Shown here piece after piece: positions 44,844-56,370 of a stretch of DNA of 56,370 nt. The stretch is from assembly GCA_964492235.1 (NCBI GenBank), contig CAZBJQ010000002.1:1-56370 (forward strand), in the 5' to 3' direction. Numbering within the stretch: position 1 is the stretch's first letter; the number at the start of each line of letters is the position of its first letter. The notes beneath the pieces are model-generated. The model did not search any database. It was not told the origin of the DNA and saw only the letters and a program-made list of their open reading frames with translations. The DNA comes from an uncultured Anaerolineaceae bacterium (GTDB lineage Bacteria > Chloroflexota > Anaerolineae > Anaerolineales > E44-bin32). The translations under genes were made by a program, and so were the position numbers.

Positions 44844-44876
44844 GGGGCTTGGGCTTGTACCCAGGCCCCGTTTCTT
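44844..44876 (+). terminator. Rho-independent terminator of folD
   Basis: GGGGCTTGGG (44844-44853) pairs with CCCAGGCCCC (44860-44869): 10 bp including one G-U pair, with a 6-nt loop. It is followed by GTTTCTT. Confidence 0.55.
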
Positions 44877-45005
44877 GCGTTGGCCCTAACCGCACAAGCG
44901 CTGTTGGTCCTCAAGGCAGGTCGATCGTCGGCCGGGCCGGGGAGGGCGGGCGGCCGACCTGCGCCTTCCATTGCCCCGAGGACGAGCATCACGCGGCCAG
45001 TCATG

Positions 45006-45045
45006 TTGTCTGACAATTGACCGCCTCAGGCGGCGATGCTACACT
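45006..45045 (+). promoter_or_regulatory. Sigma-70-type promoter with an abutting palindromic operator (candidate GntR/HutC site)
   Basis: TTGACC (45017-45022), a 17-nt spacer, then TACACT (45040-45045). The palindrome TTGTC-T-GACAA (45006-45016) sits directly upstream of the -35 box. The first gene starts at 45063. Confidence 0.4.
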
Positions 45046-45062
45046 GTCCGTACACGTTCCCT

Positions 45063-46442
45063 ATGCCCACAACTCTGATCCGGAACGCCAAGGTCCTGGT
45101 CACCATGGACGAGGCCCGACGGGAGATTCCCGGCGGCGGCTTGTTTGTCCGAGATGGCTGGATCGAGCAGGTCGGTCCGACCGCCGGGCTTCCGCAGCAA
45201 GCGGACAACGTGTACGACCTGGAGGGCCACCTCGTCCTGCCAGGGCTGGTCAATACCCACCACCACCTGTACCAGACGCTGACGCGCGCCGTGCCGAAAG
45301 CTCAGGACGCCGGCCTGTTCACCTGGCTGAAAACGCTGTACCCGATCTGGGCGCGGATGAAGCCAGAGGACATTCGAGTGTCCACCATGATCGGTCTGGC
45401 CGAGCTTGTGCTGAGTGGATGCACCACGGCCAGCGACCATCTCTACCTTTTCCCCAACGGGTGCCGCCTCGACGACGAGATCGAAGCCGGCCGCGCCGTG
45501 GGCATCCGGTTGCACGCCGCGCGTGGCTCGATGAGCCTGGGTGAGAGCCAGGGCGGGCTGCCCCCGGATCGGGTTGTAGAGGACGAGGATTTCATCCTCA
45601 AGGACACACAGCGGCTCATCGACGCCTACCACGACCCGGCGCCGGGATCGATGCTCCAGATCGTGGTCGCGCCCTGCTCGCCCTTCTCGGTGACGCCCGG
45701 GTTGATGCGCCAGGCGGCCGCCCTGGCGCGAGACAAGGGCGTTCGCCTGCACACGCATCTGGCCGAGACCCTCGACGAGGAATCATTCTGCCTGGAGCAG
45801 TTCGGCCAGCGTCCGCTAGCCTATGCCGAGCATCTCGACTGGACCGGGGACGACGTGTGGTTCGCCCACGCTGTCCACATGAGGAGTGATGAGGTCAAGC
45901 GCATGGGGCGCGCCGGCATCGGTGTGGCCCATTGCCCTTCTTCGAACATGCGCCTGGCGTCCGGGATCGCCCCGGTCCTGGCCTACCTGGCGGCCGGTGT
46001 GCGGGTCGGCCTGGGGGTGGACGGCTCGGCCAGCAACGACGGCTCTCACTTGCTGGGAGAAACCAGGCAGGCGCTTCTGATCTCCCGCCTGGGGTCGGCC
46101 CTCGGCCCGGCGGACGGGGAGCGGCAGCCCCTGATCACCGCCCGTCAGGTGCTCGAGCTGGCGACCCGCGGTGGGGCGGCCGTCCTCGGCCGCAGCGACA
46201 TCGGATCGCTCGAGGTGGGCAAGTGCGCCGACTTGATCGCCATCCGGCTCGACCGGCTGAGCTACGCCGGCGCGCTGCACGACCCGGTTGCCGCCATCGT
46301 CCTGTGTGCGCCGGTCCATGTCGACTTCGCCTTCGTGCACGCCCGGCCGGTCGTGGAACAAGGCCGTCTTTCATCGCTTGATCTGGGACCCGTGATCGAG
46401 GCCCACAACCGGGCGGCTCGCCGCATGGCTGCGGGTGACTAG
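45063..46442 (+). CDS. Amidohydrolase-superfamily deaminase, 8-oxoguanine-deaminase/guanine-deaminase-like (COG0402 group)
   Basis: The N-terminus reads MPTTLIRNAKVLVTMDE. LPGLVNTHHHLYQTLTRAV is the HxH metal site. HTHLAET, FAHAVH and GLGVDGSASND are also present. The specific substrate is not certain. Confidence 0.8.
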   Translation: MPTTLIRNAKVLVTMDEARREIPGGGLFVRDGWIEQVGPTAGLPQQADNVYDLEGHLVLPGLVNTHHHLYQTLTRAVPKAQDAGLFTWLKTLYPIWARMKPEDIRVSTMIGLAELVLSGCTTASDHLYLFPNGCRLDDEIEAGRAVGIRLHAARGSMSLGESQGGLPPDRVVEDEDFILKDTQRLIDAYHDPAPGSMLQIVVAPCSPFSVTPGLMRQAAALARDKGVRLHTHLAETLDEESFCLEQFGQRPLAYAEHLDWTGDDVWFAHAVHMRSDEVKRMGRAGIGVAHCPSSNMRLASGIAPVLAYLAAGVRVGLGVDGSASNDGSHLLGETRQALLISRLGSALGPADGERQPLITARQVLELATRGGAAVLGRSDIGSLEVGKCADLIAIRLDRLSYAGALHDPVAAIVLCAPVHVDFAFVHARPVVEQGRLSSLDLGPVIEAHNRAARRMAAGD

Positions 46443-46476
46443 ACTGCGCCGAGGGAGGGCGGGGGAGGAAGTGGAT

Positions 46477-48282
46477 ATGGCTGACCTGCTGTCCATTCGC
46501 TCCCGGGGGCTGGTGGATGTGGCCATGGGCCGCCGGCCGGCCGACCTTGTCATTCGACGTGGGCGATGGGTGTGTGTCCAGTCCCGGGAGGTCATCGAGC
46601 GGACCGATCTCGCCGTCTTGGGCGACCGGATCGCCTATGTGGGCCCGGACGCCCAACACACCATCGGCACCGGGACTCAAGTCATCGACGCTGAGGATCG
46701 CTACCTGGTCCCCGGCCTGCTTGATGGTCACATGCATGTCGAGTCAGGCATGTTGACCGTCACCGAGTTCGTCCGGGCGGTCATCCCGCACGGAACCACT
46801 GGCATGTTCATGGACCCGCACGAGATCGCCAACGTCCTCGGACTGGCAGGCGTCCGCTTGATGGTGGACGAGGCGGCGGTTCAGCCGATCCACGTGTGGG
46901 TGCAGGTCCCATCGTGCGTGCCTTCCGCCCCCGGCTTGGAAACCCCCGGGGCGGTCTTCGGACCGAAGGAGGTCGCCGAAGCGCTTTCATGGCCGGGCGT
47001 GATCGGGCTTGGGGAAGTCATGAACTACCTCGGGGTGTACGAGGGCGATCCGAAGATGCACGAGGAGATGGCGGCGACCCGCCAGGCGGGGAAGGTTATC
47101 GGCGGCCACTACGCATCGCCCGATCTGGGGCGGGCCTTCCACGGCTATGTCGCCGGCGGCCCGGAAGACGATCATGAGGGGACGCGGGCCGAAGACGCGG
47201 TGGCTCGTGTCCGCCAGGGGATGAAGGCCATGCTGCGCCAGGGTTCTGCCTGGCACGATGTGGCGGCGCAGGTGGCGGCGATCGTTGAGCGCGGCCTGGA
47301 TCCGCGGCACTTCCTGCTGGTGACGGACGATTCCCACTGCGAGACGCTGGTCGCCGAGGGTCATGTCAACCGGGCGCTCCAGGTGGCGGTCGAGCACGGG
47401 GTCGAGCCGATTACCGCCATTCAGATGGCGACGCTGAACACCGCCGAGCATTTCGGAGTCGCCCGCGACGTGGGGCAGCTCGCGCCGGGTCGCTATGCCG
47501 ACATCCTCCTGGCGCGGGACTTGCGGCTCATTCGCCCGGACATGGTGCTGGGCAGGGGGAAGATACTTGCGGAGCACGGACAGACGTGCGCGCCTCGCCC
47601 CTCGTTCTCCTACCCGCAGGAGGTCCGCCAATCGGTCCGACTGCTCGCGCCCCTCCGCCCTGAAGACTTCGTCCTCAAGGCCCCGGATGGCAAGACCGTG
47701 CGTGCCCATGTGATCGGTGTGATCGAGAACCAGGCTCCCACTCGCCACCTGGAGTTCACCCTGCAGCCGAAGGATGGCCAGGTGGCCGCCGACCTGGAGG
47801 CCGATCTGGCGCTGGTTGCCGTGATCGATCGACACCACCAATCCGGGCGGATCCAGCTCGGGCTGGTCCACGGGATCGGGTTCAAGACGCAGGCGGCCTT
47901 CGCCTCCACCGTCGTCCACGACTGCCACCAGCTGATCGTGGTGGGCACGCACACAGGCGACATGGCGCGTGCCGCCAACGAACTGGCGGCGCACGGCGGC
48001 GGGCAGATCGTTGTCCGCCAGGGGAAGGTGCTGGGCAAGGTCAACCTACCGATCGGAGGCCTGCTCTCCGATGCGCCGGCGGAGACGGTCGCGGCCGAGG
48101 CCAGGTCGGTGCTTGAGGGGTTGCGGGCATGCGGCTGCGAATTGAACAATGCCAACATGCAGCTCAGCCTGCTGGGGCTGGTGGTGATTCCCGAGTTGCG
48201 GATCTCCGACCTGGGTCTGGTCGATGTCACCCGTTTCGCCTTGATCCCGGCGTTGGAGCCAGTCGGCGAGGGCAGCGCCTAG
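46477..48282 (+). CDS. ade: Adenine deaminase
   Basis: LVPGLLDGHMHVESGMLTVTEFVRAVIPHGTTGMFMDPHEIANV, GLGEVMNY, DDHEG, LVTDDSH and the C-terminal ..VVHDCHQLIVVGT..GGG closely resemble AdeC. ATG 46477 follows GGGGGAGGAAG. Confidence 0.9.
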   Translation: MADLLSIRSRGLVDVAMGRRPADLVIRRGRWVCVQSREVIERTDLAVLGDRIAYVGPDAQHTIGTGTQVIDAEDRYLVPGLLDGHMHVESGMLTVTEFVRAVIPHGTTGMFMDPHEIANVLGLAGVRLMVDEAAVQPIHVWVQVPSCVPSAPGLETPGAVFGPKEVAEALSWPGVIGLGEVMNYLGVYEGDPKMHEEMAATRQAGKVIGGHYASPDLGRAFHGYVAGGPEDDHEGTRAEDAVARVRQGMKAMLRQGSAWHDVAAQVAAIVERGLDPRHFLLVTDDSHCETLVAEGHVNRALQVAVEHGVEPITAIQMATLNTAEHFGVARDVGQLAPGRYADILLARDLRLIRPDMVLGRGKILAEHGQTCAPRPSFSYPQEVRQSVRLLAPLRPEDFVLKAPDGKTVRAHVIGVIENQAPTRHLEFTLQPKDGQVAADLEADLALVAVIDRHHQSGRIQLGLVHGIGFKTQAAFASTVVHDCHQLIVVGTHTGDMARAANELAAHGGGQIVVRQGKVLGKVNLPIGGLLSDAPAETVAAEARSVLEGLRACGCELNNANMQLSLLGLVVIPELRISDLGLVDVTRFALIPALEPVGEGSA

Positions 48283-48285
48283 TCG

Positions 48286-49035
48286 ATGAGCCACAAGAAT
48301 GCGGCCTCCCATCGGCAGACCGATCAGTACTTGCGGACGCAGGTGGCGTTGGCGCAACTGCTCGAGCGGACCGCGCCAGGATCGTTCCTGCCTTCGGAGC
48401 CGCAGCTGGCCCGACAGCTCAGTGTCTCTCGCGCTACGCTGCGTGAGGCCATGCGCTCGTTCGAGGAAGACGGCCGAATCGTCCGCCGACAGGGCGTGGG
48501 CACGGTGGTCACACGCAAGCCCAGGGTTCTTGAGAGCGGCCTGGAAGTGCTGGAGAGCATTGACAGCATGGCTGCTCGGATCGGTCTGGAAGTCGAAGTC
48601 GGTTCGCTAGCCGTGCAGCTGGCGGAGGCCGAGGGCGGCGAGCGGGACATGATGGGGCTGGCGCCTGGAGAGCGCCTGACCGAGATCTCGAGGGGAATCC
48701 TGGCCGGCGGGCGGCCGGTGGCTTTCCTCATCGACCGGGTCCCGGCGACCGTGCTACACCCGAGTGCCCTGGAGGCAGGGTTCGGGGGATCGGTGCTGGA
48801 CCTATTCCTCGGTCGCGGCGCCCCGGTCCTCGACTATTCCCGCACGGAGATCAGCGCCGTCTCGGCCTCGCACGACGTGGCGCGCCAGCTGCGGATCCAG
48901 CGGGGGGACGTTCTGTTGCACCTCGAGGCGTATCTATACACCGCCTCGGGTGTGGCCGTGGATCACAGCCAGAGCTACTTCCTGCCGGGCACATTCTGTT
49001 TTCACGTCGTCCGACGCCTGAACCGGCACGCTTGA
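48286..49035 (+). CDS. GntR family transcriptional regulator, HutC/FarR subfamily (wHTH plus UTRA domain)
   Basis: LPSEPQLARQLSVSRATLREAMRSFEEDGRIVRRQGVGTVV is followed by a UTRA-like C-terminal half. The gene starts 3 nt after the ade stop. Confidence 0.9.
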   Translation: MSHKNAASHRQTDQYLRTQVALAQLLERTAPGSFLPSEPQLARQLSVSRATLREAMRSFEEDGRIVRRQGVGTVVTRKPRVLESGLEVLESIDSMAARIGLEVEVGSLAVQLAEAEGGERDMMGLAPGERLTEISRGILAGGRPVAFLIDRVPATVLHPSALEAGFGGSVLDLFLGRGAPVLDYSRTEISAVSASHDVARQLRIQRGDVLLHLEAYLYTASGVAVDHSQSYFLPGTFCFHVVRRLNRHA

Positions 49036-49128
49036 TCACGAAGGTGGGTATCCAGATCGACACGAACCGACCGTCCGAAGGTCCGAGGCCAGCCAGCTGG
49101 TCTCAGTCATGCACAAGGAGCAAAGAGA

Positions 49129-50079
49129 ATGCGCAGTTTCATGGGGAGGGATATCCTCTCGCTCAAGGGCTTCGAGCGCTCGGAGTACTTCCGTGTCTTC
49201 GAGGCAGCCGACCGCCTGGCGCCCTTCGCCCGAGACCGTAAGAACACCGACCTGCTCCGGGAGAAGATATTGGTCACCGCCTTCTACCAGCCGAGCACGC
49301 GCACCCGCCTGGCGCACGAGGCCGCCATGCTTCGGCTGGGCGGCAAGGTGACCGGCTTCTCCGACGCCAAGATGACCCGCGCCGGCGACTTCTACCAGGA
49401 GTCGATCAAGGACACGGTTCACATGCTTGAATACTACGGAGATGTGATCGTCATGCGTCACTTCCAGCAAGGCGCGCCGCACGAAGCCGCCCGCTGGTCG
49501 AGCGTTCCGGTCATCAACGCCGGTGACGGCTGGGGGGAGCATCCCACACAGGTTCTGACTGACATGTACACCATCTACAAGGAGAAGGGCCGGCTGGATG
49601 GACTCAACTTCCTGCTCATCGGCGACATGCGGATGCGGACCATGCATTCGATCAGTTACGCCATGAGCCAGTTCGATATCCAGGCTACATACATCGCTCC
49701 GCCCGAGATGTCGCTCACGCCGGAGTTCAAGAAGGAGCTGGACGGACTCAACCTGACTTACCGCGAGGTCGACCACGTCTCCAAGGCGATTGCTGACGCG
49801 GATGTAGTCTACATGGAGCCGGTCGTACAGCCGGACTACACCAAGTCGCGCGACGAGCGTAAAGGAGATGTTGGCTTGACGCCGGCCAACTACCAGGTGA
49901 CAAAGGCCCTGATGCGCAAAGCCAAGCCGGACTCGCTGATCCTGCACTCGCTACCGCGCATGGACGAGCTGCTGGAGGAGGTCGATGACACGCGCCACGC
50001 CCGCTACTGGGAAGAGGCCTTCAATGGCGTGGTTGTGCGCATGGCCCTGTTGGCCCTGGTGCTGGGTGCGATGGAGTAG
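49129..50079 (+). CDS. Aspartate-carbamoyltransferase-like carbamoyltransferase (PyrB-class fold, divergent second-substrate site)
   Basis: The carbamoyl-phosphate motifs PSTRTR, VMRH and HPTQ are present, together with HSLPR and the C-terminal NGVVVRMALLALVLG. Overall it is collinear with E. coli PyrB by eye. AAGGAG lies 8 nt before the ATG. Confidence 0.85.
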   Translation: MRSFMGRDILSLKGFERSEYFRVFEAADRLAPFARDRKNTDLLREKILVTAFYQPSTRTRLAHEAAMLRLGGKVTGFSDAKMTRAGDFYQESIKDTVHMLEYYGDVIVMRHFQQGAPHEAARWSSVPVINAGDGWGEHPTQVLTDMYTIYKEKGRLDGLNFLLIGDMRMRTMHSISYAMSQFDIQATYIAPPEMSLTPEFKKELDGLNLTYREVDHVSKAIADADVVYMEPVVQPDYTKSRDERKGDVGLTPANYQVTKALMRKAKPDSLILHSLPRMDELLEEVDDTRHARYWEEAFNGVVVRMALLALVLGAME

Positions 50080-50144: not shown

Positions 50145-51128
50145 ATGCAGACGGACTTGCGCGGGCGCGATCTGATCGGCGACCTCGACTTCAGTCGAGA
50201 AGAAGTCGAGACCGTTCTGGATGTGGCCTTTGACCTCAAGCGCAAACGAGCGCTGGGCGAACCGCATGCCTACTTGCGGGACAAGGTGCTGGCCATGCTG
50301 TTTTTCTTCAGCAGCACCCGCACGCGGGGCTCGTTTGAAGCCGGTATGGCCCAACTGGGCGGCCACGCCGCGTTCATCGAGGCGAAGACCACCCAGATCG
50401 CACACGGGGACACCCCCAAGGAGATCGGCCAGATCTTCGGCCGCTACTTCGACGGCATCGCCATCCGCCACGTCGACTGGGGGATCGGCAACAAGTACCT
50501 CAATGACGTCGCTCAGCATTCACGCGTGCCCGTGTTGAATATGCAGTGTGAGGTCTACCACCCCTTCCAGATCCTGGCTGACCTGATGACAATCCTCGAG
50601 AAGAAGGGCCGCGATCTGCGTCGAAAGAAGATGGTCGTCTCCTGGGCCTATGCCGCCTCCTACCAGAAGCCGATGTCGGTCCCTCAATCGTTGGTGCTGC
50701 AAATGCCGCGCTTCGGGCTGGACGTCGTCCTGGCCCACCCGCCGGAGTTCAAGCTGATGCCCGAAGTGATGGAGCAGGCACGGGCCCAGGCCAAGCGCTA
50801 TGGCACGGGCTTCGATGTCACCGATGACATGGACCAGGCCTTCAAGGAGGCCGACATCGTTTACGCCAAGTCGTGGGGAGCCATGCTCACCACGACCGAT
50901 CAGGATCAGGGCTCGAAGATCATCAAGAAGTACGAGTCGTGGATCACCGATGAGCGGCGCATGAAGCTGGCCAAGGCCGACGCCATCTACATGCACCCGC
51001 TGCCGGCGGACCGGAACGTCGAAGTCACAGATGCCGTCCTTGACAGCGGGCAGAGCGTGGTCTACGACGAGGCCGAGAACCGCATGCACGCCCAGAAGGC
51101 GGTCATGGCGCTGACGATGCGGTCGTGA
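50145..51128 (+). CDS. YgeW-like (knotted AOTCase/SOTCase/YgeW clade) carbamoyltransferase
   Basis: SSTRTR, QIAHGDT, LNMQCEVYHPFQILADL, VVSWAYAASYQKPMSVPQS, RFGLDVVLAHPPEF, EADIVYAKSWG and YMHPLPADRN run parallel to the E. coli YgeW sequence as I recall it. Confidence 0.8.
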   Translation: MQTDLRGRDLIGDLDFSREEVETVLDVAFDLKRKRALGEPHAYLRDKVLAMLFFFSSTRTRGSFEAGMAQLGGHAAFIEAKTTQIAHGDTPKEIGQIFGRYFDGIAIRHVDWGIGNKYLNDVAQHSRVPVLNMQCEVYHPFQILADLMTILEKKGRDLRRKKMVVSWAYAASYQKPMSVPQSLVLQMPRFGLDVVLAHPPEFKLMPEVMEQARAQAKRYGTGFDVTDDMDQAFKEADIVYAKSWGAMLTTTDQDQGSKIIKKYESWITDERRMKLAKADAIYMHPLPADRNVEVTDAVLDSGQSVVYDEAENRMHAQKAVMALTMRS

Positions 51129-51153: not shown

Positions 51154-51249
51154 GGGTGGGGTTTCTGCCCCACCCCCTGACCCCCTCCCCGCAGACTTGC
51201 GGGGCACGCTGCCGACCGCTGGCAGCAGGGAGGGGTGAGGGGTGGGGGT
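51154..51249. repeat. G/C-tract imperfect palindromic (REP-like) element with nested hairpins and G-quadruplex motifs
   Basis: GGGTGGGG (51154-61) pairs with CCCCACCC (51168-75). Inner hairpins are CCCCGCA/TGCGGGG (51187-51204) and GCTGCC/GGCAGC (51208-51226). A C-tract arm (51168-51190) is complementary to a G-tract arm (51228-51248). The octamer GGGTGGGG recurs at 51240-47. Confidence 0.6.
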
Positions 51250-51291
51250 TCGTTTCACATGTCCAGCGTCGGTCGGGAGGCATGCGCCAGG

Positions 51292-52233
51292 ATGAGCAAA
51301 ATCGCAGTGATTGCCGTGGGGGGCAATTCGCTGATCAAAGACAAGCAGCATCAGACCATCCCCGACCAGTACCAGGCGGCCGTCGAGTCGATGGCGCACA
51401 TCGCCGGTATGATAGAAGCTGGGTGGGATGTACTGGTGACGCACGGGAATGGCCCCCAGGTCGGCTTCATCCTGCGGCGGGCCGAGCTGTCACTGCACGA
51501 ACTGCACATGGTGGGGCTGGACTACTGCGGGGCCGACTCGCAGGGCGCCATCGGCTACATGTTCCAACGCGCGCTGTACAATGAGTTCCGCCGGCGCGGG
51601 ATCAAGAAAGACGCGGCGACCATCGTCACCCAGACCCTGGTGGACAGGAAGGACCCTGCCTTTCAGAACCCCAGCAAGCCGATCGGTTCGTTTATGGACC
51701 AGGAGCAGGCTGCGAAACACCGCCAGACCGATGGCTGGGCGGTGGTCGAGGACGCCGGGCGCGGCTGGCGGCGCGTTGTGCCCTCCCCGGACCCGAAGCG
51801 AGTGATCGAAGGACCTGCCATCAAGCAGCTGGTCGACGCCGGCTTCGTCGTCATCTGCGTCGGCGGCGGCGGGATCCCGGTGATCGAGGATGAGAACGGC
51901 GACCTGCAGGGCGTGGAAGCCGTGATCGACAAGGACTTCGGCGGCGCCCTGCTGGCCAGCGCCGTCCAGGCTGATCTGTTTCTGATCACCACCGCCGTCG
52001 AGAAAGTCGCCCTCAACTTCAACAAGCCGGACCAGGTGTGGCTCGACCGGTTGACCCTGGCCGAAGCCCGTCAACACCTGGCGGATGGGCAGTTTGCCAA
52101 AGGGAGCATGGGGCCGAAAATAGAGGCCATCCTCCGCTACCTGGAAAGCGGTGGCAAGGAAGCCCTGATCACCGACCCGGCCAACATCGAGCGGGCCCTG
52201 CAGGGGATGACCGGCACACGCATCGTGCCGTGA
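51292..52233 (+). CDS. arcC: Carbamate kinase
   Basis: KIAVIAVGGNSL, VTHGNGPQVG, YCGADSQGAIGY, GWRRVVPSP.P, ICVGGGGIPV, EAVIDKD and GSMGPKIEA are present. Confidence 0.92.
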   Translation: MSKIAVIAVGGNSLIKDKQHQTIPDQYQAAVESMAHIAGMIEAGWDVLVTHGNGPQVGFILRRAELSLHELHMVGLDYCGADSQGAIGYMFQRALYNEFRRRGIKKDAATIVTQTLVDRKDPAFQNPSKPIGSFMDQEQAAKHRQTDGWAVVEDAGRGWRRVVPSPDPKRVIEGPAIKQLVDAGFVVICVGGGGIPVIEDENGDLQGVEAVIDKDFGGALLASAVQADLFLITTAVEKVALNFNKPDQVWLDRLTLAEARQHLADGQFAKGSMGPKIEAILRYLESGGKEALITDPANIERALQGMTGTRIVP

Positions 52234-52338: not shown

Positions 52339-53619
52339 ATGCATAAGCGATTCTGGACTCTGGCCAGCCTGCTGATCGTCGCGGCCATCGTGCTGGCGGC
52401 GTGTGGTGGTGGCGGCGAAACGCCGGCCGCCCCGGAACAGCCGGTGGAACCGGCCGCAACCGAGGTGCCGGCCGCACCGGCACCCGCCGAGGAGACAGGC
52501 GGCTTCGAGATCCCCGAGGTCGAGGAAGGCAAGTTCAACGTGGCCATGGTTTTGATTGGCCCGCACAATGATGGCGGCTGGTCGCAGGCCCATTTCGAGG
52601 GCCTGGAGTATGTTGCCGACAACGTCGTCAACACACACGTCGCCTACATCGAGAACGTGCCGGAGGGCACGGAGTCCGAGCAGGTGTTCCGCAGCCTGGC
52701 GCGCAAGGGCTTCGACCTGATCTTCGGGACCTCCTTCGGATTCATGGATCCGATGGAAATCGTCGCCGGGGAGTTTCCGGACACCACCTTCAGCCACATC
52801 AGCGGTTACAAGTCCAACATGACGAACTTCGGCAACTTGTTCGGAGCCATGGAGGACATGAAGTATCTGGCGGGCATGCTCGCCGGTGCCCGCGCCAAGG
52901 CCGACGGGAATCCCAAGATCGGCTATATGGCCACCTTCCCGATTCCCGAAGAAATCCGCTTGGGGAATGCCATCGCGTTGGGGATGAAGGAAACCTGCCC
53001 CGAGTGCACGATGGACGTGCGCTGGATCAACACCTGGCATGACCCGATCATCGAGAAGGATGCTGCCGCCTCACTCTTCGACGCCGGTGCCCAGGTGGTC
53101 TTCACTGGCGCCGACACGCCGGCCGTGGCCGATGTCGCCCAGGAGAAGGGCAAGTGGGGCATCACTTACGACTGGTCCGGTTCGTGCAAAGTCGATGCCT
53201 GCCTGACCGCGCCCTACTGGAATTGGGGCCCGGTGTACGCCGGCATCACCCAGGGCCTGATCGACGGCACCTATGAAGTCGGGTGGGATTACTTCGACGC
53301 CGACAGCGGCGGCCTAGGCCTGTACGGCTTCATGGAGGGTGAACAGCTCACCAAGGGCATGGCCGATCTGCCGCCCGAGGTCATCGCCATGGTCCAGGAC
53401 ACGCTGGCCAAGATGTTGGCGGGTGAGTTCAACCGCTTCGACGTCTTCGCTGGCGAGATCCTGGATAACCAGGGCACGGTGATTGTGCCGGCCGGCGAGA
53501 AGATGCAGCAGTCCGACCTCGACCAGTTCCCGCCAGGAGCCCCCGGCCTCGAGTGCCAGTACTGTATGTATTGGTGGGCCGACGGGATCGCCTCGGAGCT
53601 GCCGAGTCTGGGCGGATAA
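52339..53619 (+). CDS. BMP-family (PnrA/Med-like) ABC transporter substrate-binding lipoprotein
   Basis: The lipobox is LIVAAIVLAAC, followed by a Pro/Ala/Glu linker and then FNVAMVLIGPHNDGGWSQAHFEGL. GGGAGGAG precedes the ATG. Confidence 0.88.
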   Translation: MHKRFWTLASLLIVAAIVLAACGGGGETPAAPEQPVEPAATEVPAAPAPAEETGGFEIPEVEEGKFNVAMVLIGPHNDGGWSQAHFEGLEYVADNVVNTHVAYIENVPEGTESEQVFRSLARKGFDLIFGTSFGFMDPMEIVAGEFPDTTFSHISGYKSNMTNFGNLFGAMEDMKYLAGMLAGARAKADGNPKIGYMATFPIPEEIRLGNAIALGMKETCPECTMDVRWINTWHDPIIEKDAAASLFDAGAQVVFTGADTPAVADVAQEKGKWGITYDWSGSCKVDACLTAPYWNWGPVYAGITQGLIDGTYEVGWDYFDADSGGLGLYGFMEGEQLTKGMADLPPEVIAMVQDTLAKMLAGEFNRFDVFAGEILDNQGTVIVPAGEKMQQSDLDQFPPGAPGLECQYCMYWWADGIASELPSLGG

Positions 53620-53638
53620 GCACCACCGCCACCCATCA

Positions 53639-53665
53639 GGGGTCGGGGCACGTTGCCCCGGCCCC
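53639..53665 (+). promoter_or_regulatory. Intercistronic GC-rich stem-loop between the binding-protein and ATPase genes
   Basis: In GGGGTCGGGGCA-cgt-TGCCCCGGCCCC the arms form a 12-bp stem (one G-U pair). No U-tract follows. The position is typical of hairpins that raise the binding-protein to transporter ratio. Confidence 0.45.
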
Positions 53666-53688
53666 TGTCAACCTTCCAGGGCAGGCTG

Positions 53689-55269
53689 ATGACTTCCGAC
53701 GACAGGCAAGTTGCGGCCGTCGAGATGCGGGGGATCACAAAGCGTTTCCCCGGCGTCCTGGCCAACGACTCGGTCGACTTTACACTGCGGCAGGGCGAGA
53801 TCCATGCCCTGCTGGGTGAGAACGGCGCCGGCAAGAGCACCCTGGTGAATGTGCTCACTGGGCTGTACCAGCCCGACGCAGGTACCATCCTGGTCAACGG
53901 TCAGCCGGTGGCCTTCGGCTCGCCGGGAGATGCCATCCGAAACGGGATCGGAATGGTTCACCAGCACTTCATGCTGGTCCCCACCCAAACTGTCACTGAA
54001 AACATCCTTCTTGGCCTCGACAAGCCTCGCTTCATCATGCGGACGGCGGGTTTCGATCGGGAGATCGGCGCCCTGGGCGAGAGGTACGGATTGCGGGTCG
54101 ATCCGGGCGCCAAGATCTGGCAGATCTCGGTCGGCGAACAGCAGCGGGTCGAGATCTTGAAGATCCTCTACCGCGGGGTGCGCGTGCTGATCATGGATGA
54201 GCCGACAGCAGTCCTCGCACCGCAGGAGATCGATGAGCTGTTCCGCACGTTGCGGTCGATGGTCGCCGAGGGCAAGTCGGTCGTCTTCATCAGCCACAAG
54301 CTCAATGAGGTCACGCGGATCGCTGACCGAATCACCGTTCTTCGCAAAGGCAGAGTGATGGCAGCCGGACTGCGACCTTCGGAGACCGACACCAGCGAGC
54401 TGGCGCGCCTGATGGTCGGCCGGGAGGTCATTTTTCAGCTGGAACGCAAGCCCAGACAGGCGGGCGAGGTCGTGCTGGCTGTGGAAGAAGTCCATGCGCT
54501 GAACGATCGCGGACTGGCCGCGTTGCGCGGCCTGTCACTGAACGTCCGGGCAGGGGAGATCGTCGGGCTGGCCGGCGTGGCGGGTAATGGACAATCCGAG
54601 CTGGCCGAGGTGATCACCGGGCTGAGGGCTCCGACCCGCGGCAGAGTGCTGGTGGGCGGGGAAGTTGTCGTGGATGGCACGCAGGGTGGCGGGACCAAAG
54701 GGCGAGTCATCGAACGCCTGATCCGGGCCGGCGTGTCCCACATCCCCGAGGACCGGACGCACGTGGGAACGGCGCCCAACCTGTCCGTCACAGACAATCT
54801 GATCATGAAGGGCTACCGCAGCCCGCCGATCGGCCGGGGTTGGTCGGTGGATGGCACTGCCGCCCGGTCGCGGGCAGCCCAATTGCGCCGGGAGTATGAC
54901 ATCACCGCCCCGTCTGTGGATACGCCCGTCAGACTCCTCTCTGGCGGGAACCTGCAGCGGTTGATTCTTGCCAGAGAGATCTCCAGCAAGCCTAAACTGA
55001 TGATCGCCATGCAGCCGACACGCGGTCTGGACGTCGGAGCGATCGAAGGCGTGCAGCGATTGCTCCTCGAGCAGCGGGACGCTGGCGCGGCCGTCCTGCT
55101 GGTGTCTGAGGAATTGGACGAGCTGATGAGCCTGAGCGACAGAATCTACGTCATCTTCGCCGGGGAAATCATGGGCGAGGTGCGTCAGACCGATATCGCC
55201 TCCCTGGGCATGATGATGACCGGCCAGCGCCTGGAGACCATCGCCGCATTGGCAGGAGGCAAGCCGTGA
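53689..55269 (+). CDS. ABC transporter ATP-binding protein with two nucleotide-binding domains (CUT2/nucleoside type)
   Basis: The first NBD has GENGAGKST, LSVGEQQRVEI and LIMDEPT. The second NBD has GVAGNGQSEL, LSGGNLQRL and VSEELDE. Confidence 0.92.
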   Translation: MTSDDRQVAAVEMRGITKRFPGVLANDSVDFTLRQGEIHALLGENGAGKSTLVNVLTGLYQPDAGTILVNGQPVAFGSPGDAIRNGIGMVHQHFMLVPTQTVTENILLGLDKPRFIMRTAGFDREIGALGERYGLRVDPGAKIWQISVGEQQRVEILKILYRGVRVLIMDEPTAVLAPQEIDELFRTLRSMVAEGKSVVFISHKLNEVTRIADRITVLRKGRVMAAGLRPSETDTSELARLMVGREVIFQLERKPRQAGEVVLAVEEVHALNDRGLAALRGLSLNVRAGEIVGLAGVAGNGQSELAEVITGLRAPTRGRVLVGGEVVVDGTQGGGTKGRVIERLIRAGVSHIPEDRTHVGTAPNLSVTDNLIMKGYRSPPIGRGWSVDGTAARSRAAQLRREYDITAPSVDTPVRLLSGGNLQRLILAREISSKPKLMIAMQPTRGLDVGAIEGVQRLLLEQRDAGAAVLLVSEELDELMSLSDRIYVIFAGEIMGEVRQTDIASLGMMMTGQRLETIAALAGGKP

Positions 55270-56370
55270 GGGCGACCAGTGGCCATGTGCGACGCAAAGG
55301 GTCCTTTCCTATCGCGATCTGGGTCGAGCCGCGGATGGACCAGCCGGGCTGGCTGGGTCCGGCCGTCTCACTGGGAGCTGTTGGCGTTGCGCTACTGCTG
55401 GGAGCGATGGTCCTGGAGATCGTCGGCGGCAACTCCATCCGAGCCTATAGCTTCATGCTCAAAGCCTCCTTTGGCAACTTCGGCGTGATCTCGGATACGC
55501 TGGTCAAAGCGACACCCTTGATTCTGGTGGGGCTGGCCTGCACCGTGGCCTTCCGCATGCGCCTGTGGAACATCGGCGCCGAAGGCCAGTTCTTTATGGG
55601 CGCTTTCGGCGCCAGCGCCGTTGTGCTGGCTCCCCTGGTGCCACCCGAAACGCCGGCCTGGCTGACCATCCTGGCGATGATCGTCGCTGGATTCGCGGCC
55701 GGGGCGCTGTGGGGCTTCATCCCCGGCATCCTCAAGGCACGCCTGAACGTCAACGAAATCATCACCACGCTCATGCTGAATTACATCGCCATTGCCTGGG
55801 TCAACTTCTTCATCTTCGCTGTCTGGACCGAGGGCGGGTTCCAGATGACCCGCATGTTCCCCAAGACGGCCTGGCTGCCGCGCCTGGCGGACTATGCCAA
55901 GCAGATCACCGGCCTGCGGGGCATTACGCTCCATCTGGGCCTGCTCTTTGGCCTGGTGGCGGCGGTCGTCATCTGGTGGGTGTTGGATCGCAGCAAGTGG
56001 GGGTATGAGATCCGACTCACGGGCGACAACCCGCGCGCTGCGCGCTACGCCGGCATCCGAATCGCGCTGAACACCGTTCTGGTCATGATGCTTTCTGGCG
56101 GACTGGCCGGACTGGCGGGCATGTCGGAGATCTCCGGAGTCGTCCACCGGCTGCAGGGCGCCATCTCCCCGGGCTACGGCTTCACCGGCATCATTATCGC
56201 CTGGCTGGCCAAGCTCAATCCGCTGGCCGTCGTTCCAGTATCCATCCTATTCGGCGCACTCATCCTCGCCGGGCGGGAGATCCAACCGTCCGGAGTTCCC
56301 AAGATGATCCAGGGAATTGTGCTGGTCTGCCTGATCGCCAGCGACTTCCTGGTGCGGAACCGCATCCAGA
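55266..56370 (+). CDS. ABC transporter permease (BMP/CUT2 type), 3' end outside the window
   Basis: This frame is not in the supplied ORF track because no stop lies in the window. GTG 55266 overlaps the ATPase stop (GTGA). My translation gives ...TPLILVGLACTVAFRMRLWNIGAEGQFFMGAFGA...GDNPRAARYAGI...GFTGIIIAWLAKLNP. Confidence 0.85.
   Translation, partial: MRATSGHVRRKGSFPIAIWVEPRMDQPGWLGPAVSLGAVGVALLLGAMVLEIVGGNSIRAYSFMLKASFGNFGVISDTLVKATPLILVGLACTVAFRMRLWNIGAEGQFFMGAFGASAVVLAPLVPPETPAWLTILAMIVAGFAAGALWGFIPGILKARLNVNEIITTLMLNYIAIAWVNFFIFAVWTEGGFQMTRMFPKTAWLPRLADYAKQITGLRGITLHLGLLFGLVAAVVIWWVLDRSKWGYEIRLTGDNPRAARYAGIRIALNTVLVMMLSGGLAGLAGMSEISGVVHRLQGAISPGYGFTGIIIAWLAKLNPLAVVPVSILFGALILAGREIQPSGVPKMIQGIVLVCLIASDFLVRNRIQ

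Follow-up and report, generated by a model that had tools for sequence, protein, structure and literature searches.

A pseudo-aspartate carbamoyltransferase of Anaerolineales as a candidate phosphorolytic enzyme of reductive urate degradation

The pATC locus

The stretch of DNA analysed here (the window, 56,370 nt) is the entire contig C2 of a metagenome-assembled genome (MAG) of an uncultured Anaerolineaceae bacterium (CAZBJQ010000002.1), and homologues come from Anaerolineales. It encodes a 'pseudo-ATCase', a protein with the fold of aspartate carbamoyltransferase (ATCase) that we term pATC, followed by a second transcarbamylase (TC2) and a carbamate kinase:

49129..50079, + strand: pATC, ATCase-fold 'pseudo-ATCase', 316 aa (open reading frame; Pfam, TIGR00670, AlphaFold2 and Foldseek)
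49115..49120, + strand: Shine–Dalgarno-like AAGGAG, 8 nt 5' of the pATC ATG (direct sequence reading)
50145..51128, + strand: TC2, second transcarbamylase, of the ornithine transcarbamylase (OTC)/acetylornithine transcarbamylase (AOTC)/YgeW clade (below every NCBIfam cut-off)
51235..52233, + strand: carbamate kinase (TIGR00746, 369 bits, and NF009007, 397 bits, both above cut-off)

The N-terminus of pATC (MRSF) is kept in its orthologues, and TC2 starts 65 nt 3' of pATC. The true start of the carbamate kinase is likely the methionine of MSKIAV near 51295. The runs listed as containing the locus are DNA metagenomes only (freshwater sediment and soil), with no RNA run among them.

Pfam matches of pATC to OTCace_N and OTCace cover both halves of an aspartate/ornithine carbamoyltransferase, and the closest solved structure is that of the Pyrococcus abyssi ATCase (1ml4, E = 1.2e-69). 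An AlphaFold2 model of the monomer, with a mean predicted local distance difference test score (pLDDT) of 87.7 and a predicted template-modelling score (pTM) of 0.89, matches ATCases bound to N-(phosphonacetyl)-L-aspartate (PALA) with template-modelling (TM) scores of 0.85–0.88 in Foldseek, and 1ml4 with a TM score of 0.88. Confidence is low in both specificity loops, the 80s loop having a pLDDT of <50 and the 240s loop one of ~56–64. In ATCases the active site is built between the subunits of the trimer.

Retained and remodelled parts of the active site

Residues were mapped across 132 pATC orthologues (67–100% identical) and 45 canonical ATCases in the numbering of E. coli PyrB; the numbering of the E. 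coli reference sequence was consistent at 11 landmark residues. The identity of pATC to ATCases (1ml4 and E. coli 1d09) is 36–41%. The following segments of the gene are discussed below:

49294..49308, + strand: STRTR, residues 56–60, intact carbamoyl-phosphate motif (invariant in the 132 orthologues and the canonical ATCases)
49375..49404, + strand: remodelled 80s loop, T83-R84-A85-G86-D87-F88-Y89-Q90-E91-S92 (alignments; AlphaFold2 pLDDT <50)
49636..49638, + strand: R170, equivalent of E. coli Arg167, the α-carboxylate binder, retained (alignment)
49816..49836, + strand: E230-P231-V232-V233-Q234-P235-D236, replacing T-R229-x-Q231-x-E233-R234 (alignment)
49846..49860, + strand: 5-residue insertion specific to the family, S240-R241-D242-E243-R244, within the 240s loop (invariant R241; pLDDT ~56–64)
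49945..49959, + strand: HSLPR, residues 273–277, a variant of HPLPR with P266 replaced by S274 (S274 in 132/132 orthologues)

The carbamoyl-phosphate site is kept: S52-T55 of PyrB correspond to S56-T59 of pATC, R105 to R110, H134/Q137 to H138/Q141 (within an HPTQ motif at residues 138–141) and L267/P268 to L275/P276. All of these residues are invariant across the 132 orthologues, and R296 (R304 in pATC) is kept as well. The ATCase fold and the residue map thereby confirm a previous sequence-only reading of this gene, which had described the protein as collinear with PyrB and its carbamoyl-phosphate elements as intact.

The residues that surround the second substrate in PyrB are remodelled in two loops. 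In the 80s loop, S80 is replaced by R84, K83 by F88, K84 by Y89 and G85 by Q90, and an aspartate, D87, is inserted; R84, D87 and Y89 are invariant throughout the orthogroup. Nearer the N-terminus, E50 is replaced by Q54; like the exchanges in the two loops, this one is essentially invariant. In the 240s loop, T228 is replaced by E230, R229 by P231, Q231 by V233, E233 by P235 and R234 by D236, with E230, P231, V233 and D236 present in 132/132 orthologues. The exchanges at three of these positions (K84 to Y89, R229 to P231 and Q231 to V233) occur in 132/132 orthologues, whereas lysine, arginine and glutamine are found there in all 45 canonical ATCases. Just before the retained R170, Y165-G166 are replaced by M169 and a one-residue deletion. 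As judged from the alignment, the site for the aspartate β-carboxylate is lost in pATC, and two of its basic positions are now acidic or neutral.

The sequence-only reading had placed a tyrosine or phenylalanine at the catalytic lysine of the 80s loop, and the alignment agrees (K83 to F, K84 to Y). It had also found the Arg229 and Gln231 equivalents of the RxQxER motif unrecognisable in pATC: the loss of R229 and Q231 stands, but SRDER is not what remains of that motif, being a conserved 5-residue insertion. Among the four residues that it had singled out for comparison, Lys84, Arg229 and Gln231 turn out to be lost and Arg167 to be kept.

Distinction from PyrB

pATC scores 248.7 bits against TIGR00670 (cut-off 236.95) and is the only match above this cut-off in the genome from which the window comes (the source genome); against YgeW models it reaches only 28 bits. 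Public records name the family aspartate carbamoyltransferase because the TIGR00670 cut-off admits it. Score, uniqueness and label together could be taken to mean that pATC is a genuine, if divergent, ATCase serving pyrimidine synthesis. We consider this extremely improbable, given the loss of K84, R229 and Q231 and the way in which pyrimidine genes are distributed.

In a TIGR00670 survey of 41 related Anaerolineales genomes, scores fall into three tiers: canonical PyrB at 350–379 bits, the pATC family at 218–263 bits and OTCases at 143–176 bits. Besides pATC and TC2, the source genome has a single further transcarbamylase-fold gene, which is OTC-like. None of the four genomes of its genus (90–96% complete) contains a canonical pyrB, a pyrE or a true pyrD, pyrC and pyrF not having been searched. 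In relatives, the canonical pyrB sits in a pyrB-pyrE-pyrD cluster, and ~18 such genomes carry pATC elsewhere, so that a pyrB scoring ~110 bits higher coexists with it. pATC is linked to pyr genes in none of the loci examined, and is operonic with carbamate kinase instead. It is kept irrespective of de novo pyrimidine synthesis and hence is not PyrB. The genus itself is probably a pyrimidine auxotroph that relies on salvage. Several further Anaerolineales likewise lack a canonical pyrB, a pyrE and a true pyrD.

These data bear on what the sequence-only reading had said of function. Its central proposal, a carbamoyl-phosphate site combined with a second substrate other than aspartate, is backed by the invariant residues, the missing pyr genes and the linkage to TC2 and the kinase. 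It had noted that no regulatory-chain or dihydroorotase gene is adjacent, which is correct: the neighbours are a GntR-type regulator and the second transcarbamylase. It had further weighed whether pATC might be the sole pyrB of the organism. pATC is indeed the sole TIGR00670 match above cut-off, yet this does not count against the proposal, because the match stands alone for want of a de novo pyrimidine pathway and not because pATC serves one.

Conserved gene order across phyla

Orthologues of pATC (scanned in one genome per species) that are 67–84% identical to it occur in Chloroflexota (Anaerolineales, Chloroflexia and Limnocylindria), Actinomycetota (Acidimicrobiales, Streptosporangiaceae and Nocardioides), Verrucomicrobiota, Eisenbacteria and Phycisphaerae. 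The order pATC–TC2–carbamate kinase is found in nearly every locus with enough flanking sequence, in at least five phyla. In a phylogenetic tree the orthogroup forms one clade with short branches (Shimodaira–Hasegawa-like approximate likelihood ratio test, 99), nested in a larger assemblage with an 'R-A-G-x' loop and apart from the ATCases with a K-G-E loop. The canonical ATCases in this tree were representative sequences plus the E. coli one, the canonical PyrB proteins of relatives being left out.

Clustering and an NCBIfam scan of the neighbouring proteins returned the following recurrent families: SsnA (425 bits), a D-hydantoinase/dihydropyrimidinase (468 bits), the molybdopterin subunit of xanthine dehydrogenase (XDH; 900 bits), YgeY (443 bits) and two pyridoxal phosphate (PLP) enzymes, of which PALP_A is threonine-synthase-like and PALP_B is CysK/CBS-like. 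Gene orders observed include HyuA–pATC–TC2–carbamate kinase–PALP_A–PALP_B–SsnA and XDH–HyuA–XDH–SsnA–x–pATC–TC2–carbamate kinase. A Nocardioides locus (L042), the pATC of which is 67% identical, reads SsnA ... pATC–TC2–XDH–HyuA–XDH. Among Chloroflexota, Actinomycetota, Verrucomicrobiota and Eisenbacteria, pATC is 67–77% identical (loci L027, L029, L036, L038 and L042); since this interphylum identity is far above what vertical descent would lead one to expect, it suggests that the pATC–TC2–carbamate kinase module moves horizontally.

The best scores of TC2 are against OTC (261 bits), AOTC (256 bits) and YgeW (192 bits, cut-off 453), with 159 bits to the YgeW structure 3q98, which on sequence similarity marks it as YgeW-like yet not a YgeW orthologue. 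It contains STRTR and HPFQ motifs, with HPLP replacing the HCLP of OTC and YAKSWG replacing DxxxSMG, and is 73–92% conserved across Anaerolineales. In another genome of the genus, its orthologue is in two pieces (residues 1–259 and 257–326, at G001:C7:355128-356106), possibly through a frameshift or an assembly error.

Beyond the orthogroup, the matches P0129–P0266 form a large, varied group of ATCase-lineage proteins that have a 'T-R-A-G-D-x-Y-x-E' 80s loop and lack RxQxER. They display several variants of the 240s loop and the HxxP motif, for example of the HPGPR and IETIGINHP types, and probably represent several further substrate specificities.

A probable link to reductive urate degradation

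A reductive uric-acid (2,8-dioxopurine) pathway was described in 2025, its genes being SsnA, HyuA, an XDH-type molybdoenzyme, YgeW, YgeY, YgeX and carbamate kinase (10.1101/2025.04.24.650524; PMC12507026). Purines are channelled to urate, which undergoes reduction, and SsnA and a D-hydantoinase then open both rings, HyuA opening the hydantoin ring to give 2,3-diureidopropionate (DUPA) (10.1101/2025.04.24.650524; PMC12507026). In E. coli and Clostridium, YgeW uses phosphate to cleave off one of the ureido groups of DUPA, and the carbamoyl phosphate formed yields ATP via carbamate kinase (YqeA); YgeY hydrolyses the other ureido group, and YgeX converts 2,3-diaminopropionate to pyruvate (10.1101/2025.04.24.650524; PMC12507026). 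An ATCase-like enzyme is mentioned in neither paper.

The SsnA, HyuA-like and XDH-type markers of this pathway, which cluster with pATC in other phyla, are all present in the source genome. They lie on its contigs C148 and C170 (loci L100 and L099), which encode a HyuA-like amidohydrolase, the FAD and FeS/Mo subunits of XDH, SsnA (on C170; 460 bits, above cut-off) and an F420-dependent NADP oxidoreductase. Truncated XDH fragments at the contig ends suggest that C148 and C170 abut, with an XDH gene spanning the break. The presence of an F420-dependent oxidoreductase alongside SsnA agrees with the report by Li et al. of SsnA clusters with an F420-type reductase in Chloroflexota and Actinomycetota (PMC12507026).

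What these genomes contain downstream of DUPA is a variant of the E. coli gene set, with pATC and the two PLP enzymes in place of YgeY and YgeX. A profile search found no true YgeW orthologue in the source genome, and YgeY is not found in its genus. Among the 41 related genomes, TC2 orthologues (at least 73% identity) are present in 34. pATC occurs in 28 genomes; in the 27 of these that also have TC2, pATC is its immediate upstream neighbour. Seven genomes have TC2 without pATC, and five of these contain a high-scoring YgeY (458–491 bits), encoded immediately upstream of TC2 in G028 and G036 and within ~1.3 kb of it in G033 and G038. YgeY is thus found in 4/27 genomes with both pATC and TC2 versus 5/7 with TC2 only (Fisher p = 0.007, uncorrected for phylogeny). 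Two activities that remove ureido groups are required for a diureido acid, and the sets observed are TC2 with YgeY, TC2 with pATC and sometimes all three, which is our principal evidence that pATC performs the YgeY step. We conclude, with a probability of roughly 0.6, that pATC is an ATCase-lineage carbamoyltransferase with a catabolic role in the lower part of reductive urate degradation, where it would replace the hydrolysis by YgeY with a phosphorolysis.

Several points weigh against this conclusion. YgeY, pATC and TC2 occur together in four genomes (G026, G029, G032 and G037), in three of them in the order YgeY–pATC–TC2, so the replacement is not strict and the substrate of pATC could differ. 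The comparison of 4/27 with 5/7 takes no account of common descent, and among the genomes are many incomplete MAGs. The substrate assignment is a prediction from sequence and genomics, and the invariant R241 of the 5-residue insertion might stand in for Arg229. DUPA derived from a D-hydantoinase should be of the D (R) configuration, and ATCases use L-aspartate. An E. coli-type diaminopropionate ammonia-lyase, YgeX, was found in none of the 41 related genomes, so that the fate of the end product may differ from that in E. coli. Finally, the two experimental papers conflict on which ureido group is cut by YgeW (PMC12990295).

Predicted reaction and regiochemistry

By analogy with the characterized pseudo-ATCase Rxyl_2847, pATC would convert a ureido acid and inorganic phosphate to an amine and carbamoyl phosphate. 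TC2 would take the role of YgeW, pATC would carry out the YgeY step on the second ureido group, and the adjacent carbamate kinase would use carbamoyl phosphate to form ATP, both ureido groups thereby yielding ATP. pATC most likely targets the 2-(α-)ureido group, although the regiochemistry is less certain than the reaction type: Arg167 is kept, and the charges of the β-carboxylate site are lost or reversed. The exchange of K83, K84, R229 and R234 for phenylalanine, tyrosine, proline and aspartate, together with the invariant D87 and E230, fits an α-ureido acid with a non-anionic side chain. It is plausible that this substrate is the cationic 3-amino-2-ureidopropanoate, which would be converted to 2,3-diaminopropionate; alternatively, neutral DUPA would be converted to albizziin. 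The OTC-like TC2 would then handle the 3-(ω-)ureido group, given that OTC-type enzymes act on distal amines, and this order matches that of Liu et al., who assign the 3-ureido group to YgeW (10.1101/2025.04.24.650524).

The same pathway and partners could also operate with the reverse regiochemistry or order, pATC cleaving the 3-ureido group (albizziin to diaminopropionate) or acting first on DUPA, and TC2 cleaving the α-ureido group. This follows from the results of Li et al., in which YgeW cuts the 2-ureido group to give albizziin, as confirmed with a standard (PMC12507026); the step equivalent to that of YgeY is then removal of the 3-ureido group, and pATC occupies the YgeY slot. A 3-ureido substrate would, however, place its carboxylate where the β-carboxylate of aspartate binds, which predicts the opposite of the residues seen, and the assignment by Liu et al. 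also runs counter to it. We therefore regard the reversed arrangement as unlikely and retain cleavage of the α-ureido group by pATC as the working assignment.

Comparison with characterized and proposed relatives

The term 'pseudo-ATCases' was coined by Barba, Dutoit, Legrain and Labedan in 2013, who left a subgroup 2, from Nocardioides sp. JS614, without a function or substrate (PMC4016543). The JS614 gene adjoins a ygeW homologue, xdhABC and hyuA, and its product carries H[ST]LP (PMC4016543). On the basis of motifs, context and the 67% identity to the orthologue of another Nocardioides genome, pATC can be assigned to this subgroup. Like subgroup 2, it is annotated as an ATCase, lacks RxQ, has STRT, HPTQ and H[ST]LP, and is encoded next to a YgeW-like transcarbamylase; XDH and hydantoinase genes are nearby in the Nocardioides locus L042, and in the source genome are on C148 and C170. 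A difference is that GX[SC] is printed for subgroup 2 at R230–Q232, whereas our alignment reads P-V-V in pATC and P-I-V in the Nocardioides orthologue. Barba et al. wrote before the reductive urate pathway was known. Subgroup 3 (marine; HSLP plus VXP) shares HSLP with pATC, and V233-Q234-P235 would match VXP given a register shift of two; the Na+ symporter and asparaginase that mark the synteny of subgroup 3 are not among the recurrent neighbour families of the 31 loci.

Subgroup 1 contains the sole characterized pseudo-ATCase, Rxyl_2847 of Rubrobacter xylanophilus, for which phosphorolysis of allantoate (diureidoacetate), the C2 homologue of DUPA, was measured (PMC4016543). It offers the closest precedent for pATC, namely an ATCase-lineage enzyme that works catabolically by phosphorolysis of a diureido acid and has a carbamate kinase as its partner in purine breakdown. 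This raises the possibility that pATC, too, is a ureidoglycine carbamoyltransferase that phosphorolyses allantoate in oxidative urate breakdown, allantoate and DUPA being close analogues and both genes adjoining one for carbamate kinase. The motifs of Rxyl_2847 and its group (HPLA and AIA/AIS/SIA) are nevertheless absent from pATC, which has HSLP and P-V-V. Rxyl_2847 lies in an oxidative context of uricase and allantoinase, with no second transcarbamylase alongside. Uricase and allantoinase are not among the recurrent neighbour families of pATC, and the recurrent hydantoinase fits TIGR02033 (468 bits, above cut-off) rather than the allantoinase model (256 bits, below the cut-off of 358). SsnA, in turn, is a hallmark of the reductive route. 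A role in allantoate breakdown is thus very improbable, and we return to the reductive pathway as the preferred setting of pATC.

Within that pathway, pATC resembles YgeY (an M20 hydrolase of E. coli and C. sporogenes) in its position immediately upstream of a YgeW-type transcarbamylase and in the step proposed for it, and the two are distributed in a largely complementary manner among SsnA-positive Anaerolineales. They differ in fold, the two being unrelated, and in chemistry: hydrolysis by YgeY is irreversible, while pATC would recover energy through phosphorolysis. Both occur in four genomes. With the knotted transcarbamylase YgeW, pATC shares the proposed type of reaction and the coupling to carbamate kinase for ATP, but it belongs to the ATCase branch, the YgeW-like enzyme here being TC2. 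With PyrB (1ml4, 1d09) it shares the fold, the full carbamoyl-phosphate site and Arg167. It differs from PyrB in lacking K84, R229, Q231, E233, R234 and E50, in the inserted aspartate and the 5-residue insertion, and in occurring outside any pyr context, including in pyrimidine auxotrophs.

In the literature searched, no further use of 'pseudo-ATCase' was found beyond Barba et al., and the link between the pATC family, the urate pathway of 2025 and the YgeY step appears to be unpublished. Fold, reaction type and pathway are known already; novelty would lie in the substrate specificity and in a route that is phosphorolytic throughout.

Flanking genes and operon extent

The remaining features of the operon and its borders are:

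44844..45045, + strand: likely operon boundary, comprising a terminator-like hairpin after folD (44844–44869) and a promoter-like site (45017–45045) (consensus scans, weak evidence)
45036..46442, + strand: amidohydrolase matching the 8-oxoguanine deaminase model, for purine funnelling (NF006055, 676 bits, cut-off 532)
46435..48282, + strand: adenine-deaminase-like amidohydrolase (TIGR01178, 460.8 bits, slightly below the cut-off of 472.5; Adenine_deam_C domain)
48286..49035, + strand: GntR/HutC-type regulator with GntR and UTRA domains (domain matches)
52339..56370, + strand: BMP/PnrA-type ABC importer, with binding protein (52339–53619), ATPase (53653–55269) and permease (55266 to the contig end)

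We considered folD as a core member of the operon, by analogy with the Rabinowitz purine fermentation, and rejected it, as the hairpin and the promoter-like site intervene and folD is missing from non-Chloroflexota loci. The regulator upstream of pATC is kept in Chloroflexota and in some Actinomycetota loci, and the amidohydrolase matching the 8-oxoguanine deaminase model in at least 12 related loci. The two amidohydrolase genes that head the operon overlap by 8 nt and have no role in the published urate pathway; their products may feed other purines into it, or may have new substrates.

It is conceivable that pATC acts on a carbamoyl compound outside urate degradation, such as N-carbamoyl-β-alanine, N-carbamoyl-β-aminoisobutyrate or a product of these two amidohydrolases. 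The frequent proximity of a dihydropyrimidinase-type hydantoinase, and the two amidohydrolases without a place in the published pathway, would suit such a role. β-Alanine had been put forward as the second substrate by the sequence-only reading. It is, however, aspartate without the α-carboxylate, which predicts loss of Arg167 and retention of Arg229 and Gln231; the reverse is observed. The frequent neighbours, SsnA, XDH and YgeY, suggest ureido compounds of the reductive urate route rather than pyrimidine catabolism, and the module is kept in genomes without pyrimidine synthesis genes. The suggestion of β-alanine is not supported, and a non-urate substrate in general appears clearly improbable beside the proposed action of pATC on a product of urate.

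In close relatives the operon continues beyond the importer with a second permease, PALP_A, a glycosyltransferase and PALP_B, and the same genes are found on contig C155 of the source genome. The two PLP enzymes are encoded there on the minus strand (G000, locus L101: 697–2100 and 3230–4495), and one also at L016:18289–19548; in many phyla both come after the carbamate kinase. PALP_A and PALP_B are candidates for the final step or steps of the pathway. An identification of PALP_A with the diaminopropionate ammonia-lyase YgeX was rejected, since NCBIfam classes it as threonine-synthase-like.

Implications

Thousands of public records mislabel the pATC family, and reconstructions wrongly credit organisms with a step of pyrimidine synthesis, even where the rest of that pathway is missing. 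An ATCase-lineage enzyme in the YgeY slot constitutes a testable variant of the urate pathway. If our reading is right, it would add a new substrate specificity and Enzyme Commission activity to the ATCase lineage. Both ureido groups of DUPA would be recovered as carbamoyl phosphate, doubling the substrate-level ATP compared with the YgeW/YgeY route of E. coli, and a division of labour between an ATCase-like enzyme with α-regiospecificity and an OTC-like one with ω-regiospecificity would bear on the disputed order of ureido cleavage. An ATP-yielding replacement for YgeY could also matter for the design of urate-degrading probiotics.

We tentatively propose, with somewhat less than even confidence, that environmental anaerobes of Chloroflexota, Actinomycetota, Verrucomicrobiota and further phyla possess a fully phosphorolytic reductive urate pathway in which a descendant of ATCase has become a 2,3-diaminopropionate N2-carbamoyltransferase through charge reversal where PyrB binds the β-carboxylate of aspartate. 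In that case, a biosynthetic enzyme would have been recruited to catabolism by the remodelling of two loops, with its carbamoyl-phosphate half-site kept.

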